A DNA stretch of 64,000 nucleotides, taken from NCBI GenBank assembly GCA_964344235.1, contig CAYFMJ010000002.1:64001-128000 (forward strand). The letters are read 5' to 3'. This document shows, piece after piece, positions 45,133 to 49,273 of this stretch. Positions within the stretch are counted from its first letter, which is position 1. The number at the start of each line of letters is the position of its first letter. This DNA comes from an uncultured Methanosarcinales archaeon (GTDB lineage Archaea; Nanobdellota; Nanobdellia; Woesearchaeales; GW2011-AR9). Under the pieces are notes generated by a model, which saw nothing but the letters and a program-made list of their open reading frames with translations, was not told the DNA's origin and did no database searches. The position numbers were made by a program, and so were the translations under genes.

Positions 45133-47457
45133 ATGGTGGATAAACATAATATTTGGATGATTGTAGTAGTGTCCCTTGTCGTTCTGGGGCTTGGAACTTT
45201 ATTATTTTTTGTTAACAATGGAACTAGTGTTGGAGAAGCAGTAAGTTTAGGGGGGGTTGAACCTTTCGTTCACTTTGCATTTGATGAGCTACCTGTAGAT
45301 GGGAAAATTAATTCTGCTGGAGGAATTTTAGGGACGTCTGCACCGGTTTCAGTCAGCGGCATTCAAGTTGCGGAAGGTTATAGTGATGGAGCGTTTGCTT
45401 TTGATGTGGGAAGCGAGGTTATTTTAGATGCTCCGAACCTTGTTGGTTTTGAGAATTTCGATTCTTTCGCAATAGGAATGTGGGTTAATCCAAGTTCCTC
45501 TAATGAAGTTATGACGCTTATTGATGGAGAGAAAGATAACTCCGATGATTATGGTTTTACAATAATTTTAGATAACATGCAGCAAAATGTAACAAAAATC
45601 ACCTTCTTTGGGAAAGATTTTATCGCGGGAAATTCTTCTTATGACATTCCTAAAATCCCGGAAGGTTCCTGGAGTCATCTTACATTTAATTTTAACATAG
45701 CTGCTGCCCCAACTGTAACAACGTATCTTAACGGAGAGGAAGTTTTAGAGGTTCCTGGAAGGGATGTTTTCCACCACGACCTACCGTGGAGAGTTGGGAG
45801 TGCAGATGATGGTGCAATTGGGTTCCATTACAAAGGTCAAATTGATGAATTGGTTCTTTATGACCGCAATCTAACTTCCACAGATGTTTCTGATGTATTT
45901 AGTGCACAAGTTGATTCAACCGTTGACTCGGATGGAGATGGTACAACTGATTTGGAAGATAATTGTCCTTCTGAGTCTAATCCCTCTCAAGTTGATTTGG
46001 ATAATGATGGTTTAGGAGATACTTGTGATATTGATGATGATGGTGATGGCGTTTTAGACCTGTCTGACAATTGTCCTGCTAATAAGAATGCTGATCAAGC
46101 GGACTTTAATGAAGATGGTGAAGGAGATGTTTGTGAAACTCTTGGAAACGGTTTAGAATGTAATGCTGTTGAGGAAGAAGGTTCTGTTTTTGTTGGTTCA
46201 ACTGCAGGTAACACCGTCTGTAGTGCATGGGCACATGAGTATGGTAGCGAAGTTGGGACTTCTGTTTCTGGCCATGTGTGTGTTGGTCTTTATCGAGGAG
46301 TTGCTATCATGAAAGATACGAGTGGTAACTTTGAATTTGGTAGGTTCAATTTTTACAAACAATTGGGTTGGAGTAAGGCGTGGGATGATCATTGCCCAGA
46401 CTACATGGCTAACCCTGACGTTGCATGGACTCAGCCAAAAAGTTTATTGCTTCCTCCTACTTTATTAGAAGCGCAAAAATGTATAGACAATGCAGAAGTT
46501 CCATTTGAGACTTTGAAGACGAGTTGTCCTGCTTTAACGACATTAACGGGCCCTGATGCTGACGGCGATGGCGTTATTGATAGTGAGGATAATTGTCCTA
46601 CCTTACCGTTCGCAACTCAAGCTAACAAAGATGGTGATGCATTTGGAGACGCTTGTGACCCTTGTGCTGATAGTGCTGATAACGATAAAGACGGTGATGG
46701 TTGGTGTGAAGGAACTGAACATAACACTGCTTGGGCTGTTAACACTGCTTTAGGTAACGATATCAAAGGCGCTAATGATTTGTGTCCAGATGATGCGACT
46801 GACTCTTGCGAGAATCCTGGCGCGGACAGTGATTACGATTCAGATGGTGTACCTAACGAAGATGACCTCTGTAATGTGGTCCCATATGAAGGTGTTGAAA
46901 TAGATGCCGATGGTTGTACAGTAGATTATGAGGAATGTTATACTAGTAATGAATGTAGGGCTGGCGTTACTTGTGTTAACAACTTCTGTAATCCCGATGT
47001 TGGAGTAATATTGTGTGTTGACGGTTTCCTTGATGCGGGTGAGGATTGTGCAGGTTATAATCCAGGAGATGTGAATCTTGATGGACTCGTTGATAATGAA
47101 GATGTTAATTGTTACCAGGATGCTGCAGAGGGAGATGAAAGTTGTTTGAATGTTGCTTTTTCAATTGCAGATTTAGATTGTGACGGGACTCTTTCTGGAG
47201 AGAATAGTTTGGTTGAAACTTTGATAAGTGAAGGACAATATTCAGTAATCGATGATGTTAACCAAGATGGTATTGTTGATTCGTGTGTTCCTGAAGTTCC
47301 AACTGGCGATTTTACTGTTACTGTTAACAACGAACAACAACAAGCTCTTTTACAAAATATTCAAGCACAGTTATCAGGGGATAATGTTTTAGTTCAACTC
47401 TCAATCATTGCAAAAGAGTTGAAGTGCTACTTTGAGGATGGTTGTACTGTAAGTTAA
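45133..47457 (+). CDS. Surface protein: LamG-like jellyroll, thrombospondin type 3 repeats and dockerin domain
   Basis: HFAFDE...FAIGMWVNP...[13 protein letters not shown] (LamG); DxDGDGxxDxxDNCP; [14 protein letters not shown]...[10 protein letters not shown] (dockerin). Confidence 0.85.
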
Positions 47458-47458
47458 G

Positions 47459-49273
47459 ATGACGCGGAGACGATACAAGAAACTTCCTCCACATACGTGG
47501 GAAGCGCATCCTCACACGGATCGGGGGGAAGTGAATAAACCGTTTGTAATTGGAATTATTGTAGTCGTTGCGTTGATTGCGTTAGCATTGTTGTTATTTT
47601 TTACCGACTCTTTTTCCAGCGTAGGAAAAGCATTTGATACCGGTGGTTTGGAGATTGATGAAGCAGGCGTCTCTGGTTTTCGAACGTATGCTCCCTCCGA
47701 GCAGGCTCATATCCCAATTGTGGTGAATATTGGGAATAAAGAATCCTTGGCGTTAGGGTTTGAGCTGCAGTATGATCCGGAGGTATTAACATATGTAGCA
47801 ATTAATTTCGAACCACTGCAAGATCTTTATCTTGGAGAAGAGAATGGGGAAACGTATCCTTTGAATGTTCAAGATTCTCTTCAGAGTAAGATTATTACTC
47901 CTGGGACTGTTCAGGCAAATTTTAGTTGGCTCTATGATAGTAGCGGTGGAGATAACTATTTGACTGGAGAAAGAGTTGTTGCGTATGCTATATTTAACGC
48001 CAAGAATGAAGGAGAAACGAGCGTAGGTTTTACTAATTTTGATGTTATTGATTTTGCTACCCAGGAACCAATTGCATTGTCATTGAGTTCAGGGACGGTT
48101 ACCGTTGAAGTTGAGGGGGAAGTCCTAGATACAGATGGTGACGGAATTCCTGATGCTGTTGACAATTGCCCGGAGGTAGTAGGTAGTCAGTCAGATCTTG
48201 ATGGTGATGGAATCGGAAATCCATGTGATCCAGATATTGACGGAGATGGATTTGATAATGATGTTGATAATTGTCCAGACTCCGCTATTGGAGTTGAAGT
48301 TGATGAATTTGGCTGTGGAGACCTTGGCTTGCTAGATTCAGATGATGATGGTCTTCCTGACTCTTTAGATAAATGTCCTAATGATCCTGACAATGATGCT
48401 GATTTTGATGGGTATTGTGTGGGGGATGGTCCTAATCCTGGGGTAAATGATAACGACAATTGTCCTTTAATTCCAAACGCCGGTCAGACTGATACAGACG
48501 GTGATGGAGTTGGAGATGCATGTGACGAAGATGCCGATGCTGACGCTGATGGAATACCGGAAGAAGGTTTTGGTCATTCTTGTTATGGTGCACCTTTTAA
48601 TATAGACGGAGCAACAGAGTGTAACGATAATTGTCCGCTTGTCGCAAATGCAGACCAGTTAGATGCAGACGGTGATGGTGTCGGTGATGCATGTGATAAT
48701 TGTCCGGGAACTATTAGTAATGATGTTACTGACAGCGATGGTGATGGATTTGGTGACGTGTGCCAAGATGACTTTGATGGTGATGGGGTTGCGAATACTG
48801 TTGATAATTGTCTGATGGTTGCAAATAATAATCAAGCGGATACAGATGGTGATGGTATCGGAGATGCATGTGATGATGTGGATGATACTGTTGGAGAACC
48901 AGAAATTGATGAAACCCCTGAAGGGGTGAGTGTACAGATGTTTGACCTAGCTGGAAACGAAGTGACAACCACGCAAGTGACGCCTGGAGTAACATATGTG
49001 ATTCAGATTACTGTGAATCCAACGGCTAATTTAGAGAACCATTTAGTGCTTGGAAAAGTCTCGTATGGTGGTGTTGTGGAGACCCAATTTTCTGAATCGA
49101 AAGATCCCGCGGATGCTGGCGTAGCGACGCTGAATTCATTTAGCCATGCGGTTCCACTTGATGCAACTGGGGAGATGAAAGTAGAAGCATTTGTTTGGAA
49201 TAGTTGGCTGTCTTCAGAAGTGAGTTGGAGTTCATTAGAAGATCCAGTAGAGGTTCTTTATAATGTTGAATAA
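47459..49273 (+). CDS. Surface protein: cohesin domain, thrombospondin type 3 repeats, C-terminal Ig-like domain
   Basis: IPIVVNI...[11 protein letters not shown]...[18 protein letters not shown]...SGTVTVE (cohesin); about 8 TSP3 repeats. Confidence 0.83.

Follow-up and report, generated by a model that had tools for sequence, protein, structure and literature searches.

Scaffoldin genes of cellulosomal bacteria occur in clusters, such as cipA-olpB-orf2p-olpA of Clostridium thermocellum and the sca cluster of Ruminococcus flavefaciens, in which a gene with a C-terminal dockerin lies directly upstream of the gene for an anchoring protein whose N-terminal cohesin binds that dockerin. An X module beside the dockerin can join in the binding. 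Noncellulosomal archaeal cohesin-dockerin pairs appear in passages of PMC9012536 that cite Bayer 1999, Haimovitz 2008, and Peer 2009, for Archaeoglobus fulgidus (ORFs 2375/2376) and for ANME archaea. A search of the accessible literature returned no paper describing cohesin-dockerin systems in the archaea studied here. We analyzed two neighboring genes of such an archaeon, in which an earlier note had recognized a dockerin followed by a cohesin and had proposed that the pair clips a LamG/TSP3 subunit onto a TSP3 stalk protein.

The genes lie in a 64,000-nucleotide stretch of DNA, which as a whole we call the window. It carries several archaeal markers (ribosomal protein S6e, SepF and FtsZ, and an archaeal-type ProRS C-domain), and the small size of the genome (1.19 Mb, 96% complete) fits a DPANN archaeon. 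Three genes follow each other in order and abut on the plus strand (45133-50249), which is also the strand of all features given below. The first, P0001 (45133..47457, 774 amino acids), was read from its open reading frame, translation, and Pfam matches as a predicted exported LamG/TSP3 protein with a dockerin-like module and a C-terminal tail. The second, P0002 (47459..49273, 604 amino acids), encodes a putative membrane-tethered cohesin protein of a family that we name P2N (open reading frame and translation). The third, P0032 (49263..50249, 328 amino acids), is predicted from its translation and its homologues in relatives to be a type-I membrane anchor; the translation contains a signal peptide, Cys-rich repeats, a transmembrane segment, and a cytoplasmic tail. 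As the note had said, the second gene begins just downstream of the first, with a single base between the two open reading frames, and about 470 nucleotides separate the paired-loop module of P0001 from the cohesin of P0002. We define the P2N cassette as a gene ending in the tail, then a gene with the N-terminal motif, transmembrane segment, and cohesin, then a type-I anchor gene; by this definition the cassette is complete here, and the region most likely represents one copy of a cell-surface cassette conserved in the family of the source archaeon. When the locus was searched against genome contigs, only bacterial matches were returned, and these were driven by TSP3; searches of metagenome contigs gave no match. 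In other searches, genome G448 gave a weak match, on which none of our claims depends.

The cohesin claimed for the second gene was borne out. Pfam Cohesin (PF00963) scored 28.4 bits on the full protein, 31.4 bits on a fragment, and 32.2 bits in a six-frame scan of the genome, against a cutoff of 24.1, and it places the domain at amino acids 85-216 (47711..48106). A lineage cohesin HMM built without P0002 scored 37.4 bits (E 1.2e-9), and by both models this is the only cohesin in the genome. When the P2N profile was aligned with the cohesins of the order by hhalign, with the window row out of both, the probability was 98% (E 2.3e-13). Searches of PDB sequences found nothing with the cohesin fragment alone and no chain with the P2N profile alone, and the order-cohesin profile including P0002 retrieved 37 solved cohesin chains (best 2e-24), among them the A. 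fulgidus cohesin 2xdh. Judged by these sequence comparisons, P0002 carries a true cohesin, though a divergent one. Word-indexed homologue searches with the cohesin region, as with the dockerin-like region of P0001, returned only the query, and relatives of both modules needed profile or full HMMER searches.

The remainder of P0002 defines its family. A basic N-terminal motif (amino acids 3-27, 47465..47539) is better conserved in the P2N alignment than the cohesin itself, and it is followed by a transmembrane or signal segment (amino acids 29-48, 47543..47602; translation and P2N alignment) and a G-x-A site (amino acids 56-58) whose Gly and Ala are invariant in that alignment. Behind the cohesin stand a thrombospondin type 3 Ca-binding repeat array (Pfam TSP_3, 114.9 bits in 6 stretches; approximate limits 48122..48898) and a C-terminal beta-rich domain (about amino acids 490-604, 48926..49270), of which residues 490-602 matched P2N-like proteins of genomes G499, G303, and G321 in phmmer. 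Cohesin and TSP_3 were the only Pfam domains on P0002, with no protease, transpeptidase, or transporter domain. The P2N profile scored 281.9 bits on P0002, and relatives were found in 58 of the 81 genomes of the same family; P2N is named here as a new, family-specific family of membrane-tethered cohesins. Gene neighborhoods were counted for 62 P2N genes (61 upstream open reading frames for the tail), and a gene homologous to P0032 lay directly 3' of 29 of the 62. Rather than as the TSP3 stalk protein of the note, P0002 is better seen as the product of the central gene in a conserved cassette of three.

P0001 begins with a hydrophobic segment that could serve as a signal peptide or as a membrane anchor (amino acids 7-27, 45151..45213; translation), and about 10 residues after it lies a small-x-small site at which the protein may be cleaved. 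Pfam reported LamG_3 and TSP_3 alone on the full-length protein, the former as a Laminin_G_3 (concanavalin A-like lectin) domain (PF13385; amino acids 104-253, 45442..45891; 59.7 bits, cutoff 27.6) and the latter at 50.9 bits. The dockerin-like module follows at amino acids 645-700 (47065..47232) and consists of two units, each a Ca loop and a helix, joined by a linker helix; each of its two 12-residue DxNxDG-type loops is followed by a short amphipathic stretch. No other open frame in the genome contains at least two such loops 18-45 residues apart. The duplicated Ca-binding segment had thus been placed correctly, but the protein does not end with it: a third, partial Ca-loop motif without a helix behind it (amino acids 708-716, 47254..47280), recognized in the sequence and found also in the relatives P0023 and G499, and then the 48-residue tail come after.

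The module scored poorly with general dockerin models. Pfam Dockerin_1 (PF00404) gave no match on full-length P0001 at E <=1 and 12.5 bits (E 0.18) on a 152-residue fragment, below the cutoff of 22.9, and the fragment also gave weak EF-hand matches. A scan of the whole genome with Dockerin_1 found nothing over the cutoff and did not report P0001, so that the genome-wide count of dockerin-bearing proteins suggested in the note comes to none by this measure. The lineage dockerin HMM reached only 13-19 bits on P0001 fragments and did not pick up P0001 in the whole genome. When the module itself served as the query, the matches were mainly dockerins. HMMER over 1.84 billion proteins returned 24 nonself matches at E <=1e-3, and Dockerin_1 was the top Pfam family in 18 of the 20 that were scanned; the library matches were in register with their dockerin domains, and they included one true EF-hand protein, P0025. 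Among single-domain relatives the nearest was P0023 (36.5 bits); it has four cysteines in common with the module and passes Dockerin_1 at 24.1 bits, which makes it a bridging homologue. P0023 sits on a 1.4-kb contig. In hhalign, the module matched 27 dockerins of the same order with a probability of 79% (E 1.5e-5), and the alignment with these dockerins was in register over both loops and helices. Of the four columns in which Asp is near-invariant, P0001 departs only at loop-2 position 12, where it has Asn; the homologue in G499, of the same family, has the canonical Asp there.

An AF2 model of the module from a dockerin-containing alignment (pLDDT 66) showed the dockerin helix pattern, with helices at model residues 26-36, 43-50, and 60-70, a shape that is partly circular because the input alignment was made of dockerins. 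With this model, biased as it is by the dockerin alignment, all 18 PDB matches in Foldseek were dockerins, at weak E values (>=0.28), with target-normalized TM values of 0.53-0.71 and rmsd of 2.4-3.8 A, and of 0.34-0.37 for three longer double-dockerin chains. Single-sequence AF2 of the P0001 C terminus gave a pLDDT of 37, too low for use, and a PDB sequence search with the dockerin-like fragment gave no significant match, the third-ranked entry being an R. flavefaciens dockerin (E 0.3). From its sequence relationships, the module is identified as a divergent, four-cysteine member of the dockerin family. The dockerin of the earlier note accordingly stands as a family member, but one that fails Dockerin_1 and is not terminal.

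The very C terminus of P0001 is a predicted helix-loop-helix tail of 48 residues (amino acids 727-774, 47311..47454), with a length of about 48 in relatives as well. A jackhmmer search seeded with this tail found it at the C terminus of 23 open reading frames upstream of P2N genes in relatives. At a threshold of >=15 bits, the tail HMM matched 29 of the 61 open reading frames upstream of P2N compared with 8 of 270 control frames (3%), a comparison with some circularity, since the HMM had been trained on 23 of the frames that it scored. The tail had no match in Pfam or the PDB, and the idea that it is a degenerate dockerin was ruled out by an hhalign probability of 0.1%. It has a conserved amphipathic pattern and contains no hydrophobic membrane-spanning stretch. 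Its position at the extreme C terminus, this pattern, and its tight linkage to a single partner gene would also suit a C-terminal sorting or secretion signal rather than a ligand, so that P2N, much like the dedicated partners of other C-terminal sorting tags, would recognize, process, or anchor the tail proteins while its cohesin stays free for a dockerin, here that of P0001; the strongly conserved cytoplasmic or N-terminal motif of P2N suggests something more than a passive receptor. We regard this reading as improbable, given that Pfam finds no processing or transport domain of the kinds listed above in P2N and that known archaeal C-terminal sorting signals have the hydrophobic stretch that the tail lacks.

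Relatives and sister families bear on which module would bind the cohesin. Neither domain is rare in the order: of its 201 genomes, 24 had a Pfam Cohesin match over the cutoff and 48 had one to Dockerin_1. A dockerin at the end of one gene followed by a cohesin at the start of the next, both canonical, recurs in at least 10 genomes and at least 9 sister families of the order. A canonical C-terminal Dockerin_1 gene adjoins an N-terminal-cohesin gene in G088, G119, G200, G071, G188, G137, G042, G186, and G023; two further genomes have the adjacency at the gene level, but with the cohesin internal to its protein in G002 and the dockerin internal to its protein in G057. This recurrent layout supports a plug-and-socket reading. 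Within the source family, a dockerin HMM match was present up to 1.5 kb upstream of 11 of the 62 P2N genes, and about one-quarter of the Dockerin_1 matches adjoin cohesin or P2N genes, which also speaks for docking. Against it, about 50 of the 62 had no detectable dockerin nearby, and of the 58 genomes with P2N, at least 34 lacked any Pfam Dockerin_1. P2N cohesins therefore do not generally need a dockerin. The pairing proposed in the note thus recurs in canonical form, but in the closest relatives it is the tail, not the dockerin, that is conserved beside P2N, so the dockerin may not be the plug, or not the sole one. Outside the family, the P2N profile matched only the cohesins of dockerin-coupled pairs, those in G088, G071, and G188, which suggests that the tail occupies the place that the dockerin has in these sister lineages. 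It is possible, though we would not favor it, that the P2N receptor has swapped a Ca-dependent dockerin ligand for a Ca-free helix-loop-helix tail. The cassette would then be a family-wide plug, socket, and anchor that displays variable surface proteins, and P0001, in which the tail stands beside a retained dockerin-family module, would represent either a dual-plug form or an intermediate in evolution.

The reading that we prefer, with modest confidence, is that P0001 attaches by its C-terminal end to the cohesin of P0002 and that the lectin-like subunit is held on the cell in an enzyme-free adhesion complex. P0002 would sit at the membrane with the cohesin as its first outside domain, a socket, and P0032 would serve as a type-I membrane anchor. 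P0001 would be exported as a lectin-like (LamG), Ca-binding (TSP3) protein whose last 130 residues contain the dockerin-like module and, behind it, the tail, each of them a candidate plug. Its C-terminal end would then bind the membrane-proximal cohesin of P0002 and keep the lectin-like subunit on the cell surface within an adhesion complex that has no enzymes. We infer both the binding and its possible dependence on Ca. If binding occurs, the tail may well be the main plug, at a little short of an even chance; the dockerin-like module is a serious but lesser candidate, and joint action of the two, as in X-module-assisted dockerins, is rather unlikely.

An unlikely alternative is that P0001 and P0002 do not bind through these modules at all. 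The cohesin would then bind another partner, such as the extracellular part of the P0032-type anchor, whose gene is as tightly linked to P2N as the tail is (29/62), the loops would be structural Ca sites like those of TSP3, and the adjacency would reflect coregulation. The failure of the module to reach the Dockerin_1 threshold, its weak EF-hand matches, and the abundance of other Ca-binding repeats around it in P0001 are consistent with this. However, the module is most closely related to dockerins and not to generic EF-hands, 470 nucleotides separate the genome's one paired-loop module from its one cohesin, and the canonical pairs of sister families point to docking of a C terminus on a cohesin. 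It is more doubtful still that the modules act between cells, with the dockerin-like module, the cohesin, or both binding a counterpart on a host or partner as an interspecies attachment device. A small genome is typical of host-dependent archaea, but nothing here points to a host, and because the genome encodes exactly one socket, next to a single plug of either kind, self-pairing is the simplest reading.

Such small-genome archaea are believed to live in attachment to other cells, and the locus bears on the assembly of their surface and attachment structures. Docking of P0001 on P0002 would turn the locus into a testable assembly rule, in which a C-terminal module plugs into the membrane-proximal cohesin encoded by the next gene. 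The layout recurs widely across the order, and in one family a new tail may have taken the place of the dockerin. If the tail is a cohesin ligand, it would be of a new kind, widening the binding repertoire of the cohesin fold, and protein engineering would gain a new affinity pair of small size.

A cellulosome is ruled out: the whole genome has one cohesin, no multicohesin scaffoldin, and no dockerin-bearing enzymes. The note was right that no enzymes are attached, since Pfam found no glycoside hydrolase domain in P0001 or P0002, and its preference for adhesion or anchoring over catalysis appears the sensible reading of the probable function. Taken as a whole, its observation was confirmed and its interpretation partly supported. 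Like the A. fulgidus and ANME pairs, the locus combines a cohesin and a dockerin-type module in neighboring genes of an archaeon without cellulose degradation, lacks a multicohesin scaffoldin, and has a presumed role in surface-protein assembly. Unlike those pairs, the P0001 module is a four-cysteine subtype that is under the Pfam threshold and not terminal, the P0002 cohesin stands directly behind an N-terminal membrane segment with a conserved motif, and a second, nondockerin C-terminal tail is conserved beside P2N. With the bacterial scaffoldin clusters, the pair shares the gene order and may share a helper module beside the dockerin, which there is the X module, whereas it has no enzymes, CBM, multicohesin scaffoldin, or SLH or sortase anchor, and it consists of one plug and one socket with a lectin-like/TSP3 protein as cargo. 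The sister-family pairs share an upstream C-terminal module followed by a gene with a signal or transmembrane segment and a cohesin at once, and the upstream partner in G057 also joins LamG_3 with a dockerin. They differ in that their dockerins are terminal and over the Pfam cutoff, their cargos include enzymes (the polysaccharide lyases PL8 and PL14, and a GH39-like region), and they have neither the N-terminal motif of P2N nor the tail nor an anchor gene of the P0032 type.

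The open reading frames P0001 (45133-47457, plus strand, 774 amino acids) and P0002 (47459-49273, plus strand, 604 amino acids), the first and second genes of the cluster, are separated by one base and share the plus strand. In P0001, a hydrophobic segment near the N terminus is accompanied by a Laminin_G_3 domain (59.7 bits) and Pfam TSP_3 repeats, while P0002 consists of a basic N terminus, one membrane segment, a cohesin domain at residues 85 to 216 and six TSP_3 stretches (114.9 bits in Pfam). The window also holds the archaeal markers S6e, SepF with FtsZ, and an archaeal ProRS C-domain, and the genome size of 1.19 Mb at 96% completeness fits a DPANN-type organism. 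The cohesin proposed in the earlier note was confirmed by sequence, with Pfam Cohesin scoring 28.4 bits against a cutoff of 24.1. An HMM of 19 cohesins of the order, from which the query was left out, gave 37.4 bits (E 1.2e-9) for P0002 and exceeded 10 bits for no other sequence in the genome. Pfam applied to all six frames of the genome likewise found this cohesin alone (32.2 bits). The order's cohesin profile matched 37 solved cohesin chains, among them the cohesin of Archaeoglobus fulgidus. By these sequence comparisons, the P0002 cohesin is genuine and unique in the genome.

The dockerin previously proposed in P0001 was upheld as regards homology to dockerins but not as a Pfam assignment: Pfam did not report Dockerin_1 in the full-length protein, and a fragment reached 12.5 bits against the cutoff of 22.9. 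With a lineage dockerin HMM, P0001 scored 13 to 19 bits, as fragments only. The last 165 residues of P0001, run in an unbiased HMMER search against 1.84 billion representative proteins, gave 24 non-self matches at an E value of 1e-3 or lower, which fell in register with dockerin domains; the top Pfam family was Dockerin_1 in 18 of the 20 matches scanned, the other two being a true EF-hand protein and a protein aligning to another part of the query. The best single-domain relative (36.5 bits), the public protein P0023, has four cysteines at equivalent positions and lies over the Dockerin_1 cutoff with 24.1 bits. This 218-amino-acid protein, truncated by the end of a 1.4-kb public contig, resembles a beta-helix protein and carries its dockerin-like module N-terminally, right behind a signal peptide. 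A homologue from the same family (G499) shares the four cysteines; at position 12 of loop 2 it has the canonical Asp, in contrast to the Asn of the window protein.

An alignment to 27 of the order's dockerins placed the P0001 module in register across the two calcium loops and the two helices, and hhalign matched it to the order's dockerins with a probability of 79% (E 1.5e-5). An AF2 model (pLDDT 66), built on the dockerin alignment and hence biased by it, displayed a loop-helix, linker-helix, loop-helix pattern. All 18 Foldseek matches of this alignment-biased model in the PDB were dockerins, with weak E values and a target-normalised TM score of 0.53 to 0.71 for single dockerins, lower for longer double-dockerin chains. 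The fold support for a dockerin identity is weaker than the homology support. Dockerin clusters were also nearest to this region in a protein-language-model atlas (0.89), which is a lead only. The genome-wide count of dockerin-bearing proteins suggested by the earlier note yielded none over the Pfam threshold, and a regular-expression scan detected such paired loops in no open frame of the genome other than P0001. Judged by homology, the module is a divergent dockerin relative and not a Pfam-threshold member.

Among 201 genomes of the order, a sample in which related genomes are not independent, Cohesin was over the cutoff in 24 and Dockerin_1 in 48; these domains are therefore common in the order, not exceptional. 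The unpublished genome G448, which turned up once as a weak match, was given no weight. In nine genomes (G088, G119, G200, G071, G188, G137, G042, G186 and G023), a gene with a canonical terminal Dockerin_1 abuts a cohesin gene, whose product starts with a signal or transmembrane segment immediately followed by the cohesin. The genes are adjacent in G002 and G057 as well, but there the cohesin (G002) or the dockerin (G057) is internal. The cargo of the upstream partners varies (lamin-tail domains, beta-propellers, beta-helix, LamG_3 and polysaccharide lyases), and the order's cohesin proteins carry Ig-like, PKD, cadherin-like and CARDB domains. The recurrence of such pairs supports, at the level of gene order, a general rule in this group whereby a C-terminal plug docks onto the cohesin encoded by the following gene. 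At one locus of G042 (L053, C6:74000-89044), five co-directional dockerin-ending genes precede a two-cohesin protein and a 169-amino-acid cohesin protein. The G042 genome, also of this order, measures 2.7 Mb; the locus forms a small scaffoldin-like operon, and one of its dockerin genes bears a polysaccharide lyase 8 domain. Another locus (L056, G023:C125:7000-15000), reminiscent of an adaptor scaffoldin, encodes a protein with cohesin, PKD and C-terminal dockerin, followed by two more cohesin genes.

The first 230 residues of P0002 define a membrane-tethered cohesin family, P2N, by HMMER against loci of the same archaeal family. In its members the cohesin is preceded by a conserved basic motif at the N terminus, a membrane segment and a G-x-A site with invariant Gly and Ala. 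P2N was present in 58 of the 81 sampled genomes of the family, often in two to four copies, and full-length matches were limited to this family in the 201-genome sample. In the window (47465-47632), the N-terminal 25 residues (basic, Pro/His-containing), the membrane segment and the G-x-A site show stronger conservation across the family than the cohesin does. This stretch may function as a specialised signal peptide or as a cytoplasmic tail with a role of its own. Four of seven P2N members passed the Pfam Cohesin cutoff, and the P2N profile without the window row matched Pfam-verified cohesins of the order with 98% probability (E 2.3e-13). A P2N-like gene in the related genome G321 (L102:7409-8684, C1) is broken by stop codons (one TGA and two TAA in the Pfam match) and is probably a pseudogene; the tail-ending gene upstream of it is intact.

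The gene directly upstream of P2N in relatives usually lacks a dockerin. Of 62 P2N genes, 11 had a dockerin HMM match in the 1.5 kb before them and 4 had one downstream; these and the other neighbour counts given here come from our own HMMs and stop-to-stop ORFs. Only 24 of the family's 81 genomes had a detectable Pfam Dockerin_1. The element conserved in its stead is the last approximately 50 residues of P0001 (47311-47454, plus strand; 48 residues), a helix-loop-helix tail that jackhmmer found at the extreme C terminus of 23 ORFs, most of them ending no more than a few tens of bases from a P2N gene. The tail HMM reached 15 bits or more in 29 of the 61 ORFs lying immediately before P2N genes, versus 8 of 270 control ORFs, a partly circular comparison since 23 of the scored ORFs also trained the model. 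The tail ends the directly upstream gene of about half of the family's P2N genes and is often preceded by a small Cys knot. It had no match in Pfam or the PDB, and kinship with dockerins was rejected (hhalign probability 0.1%). Outside the family, the P2N profile matched the cohesin part only, and the cohesins concerned were precisely those of the dockerin-coupled pairs in G088, G071 and G188. Where sister lineages have the dockerin, this family thus has the tail.

Downstream, P0032 (49263-50249, plus strand) encodes a type-I membrane anchor whose two Cys-rich repeats contain Trp and whose cytoplasmic tail is small and helical; a homologue directly follows 29 of 62 P2N genes. The tail upstream and this anchor downstream therefore make the P2N cohesin gene the middle of a conserved three-gene cassette, of which the window contains one copy; a variable protein with the tail at its end comes first and the anchor last. 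Further upstream, a cassette at 38787-45089 is closed by a similar anchor, P0033, and has no cohesin, dockerin or tail. In G499, of a related genus, the four-cysteine dockerin-like module precedes a LamG-like domain in an 808-amino-acid protein (L101:1612-4035, C1), whose cluster also includes two cohesin genes, and a separate 325-amino-acid protein bears the tail. The dockerin-like module and the tail are therefore separable, and in P0001 they are fused.

The most economical reading of these sequence patterns is that the C-terminal end of P0001 would dock on the P0002 cohesin. Conservation within the family favours the tail as the candidate plug, and existing knowledge of cohesins favours the dockerin-like module. 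A trend noted post hoc also points to the dockerin-like module: of 21 Pfam Cohesin matches in the family (E value of 1e-3 or lower, P0002 included), about 9 were dockerin-linked, compared with the 11 of 62 among all P2N genes. X modules contribute to binding beside type II and III dockerins, and by analogy both modules of P0001 may contribute to docking. Such docking would yield a surface structure for adhesion that lacks enzymes and carries a lectin-like domain and long calcium-binding repeats. As the earlier note had held for glycoside hydrolases, no enzymes accompany the pair; a cellulosome was rejected, since genome-wide Pfam scans gave a single cohesin and no dockerin above the threshold, and neither P0001 nor P0002 has a Pfam enzyme domain. 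Full-text literature searches found no paper on such cohesin/dockerin systems in DPANN or Woesearchaeota. Non-cellulosomal archaeal cohesins and dockerins are known from Archaeoglobus fulgidus, with verified binding, and from ANME archaea, according to PMC9012536 (citing Bayer 1999, Haimovitz 2008 and Peer 2009), and the dockerins on giant Omnitrophota proteins have been proposed as adhesins (PMC10066038).
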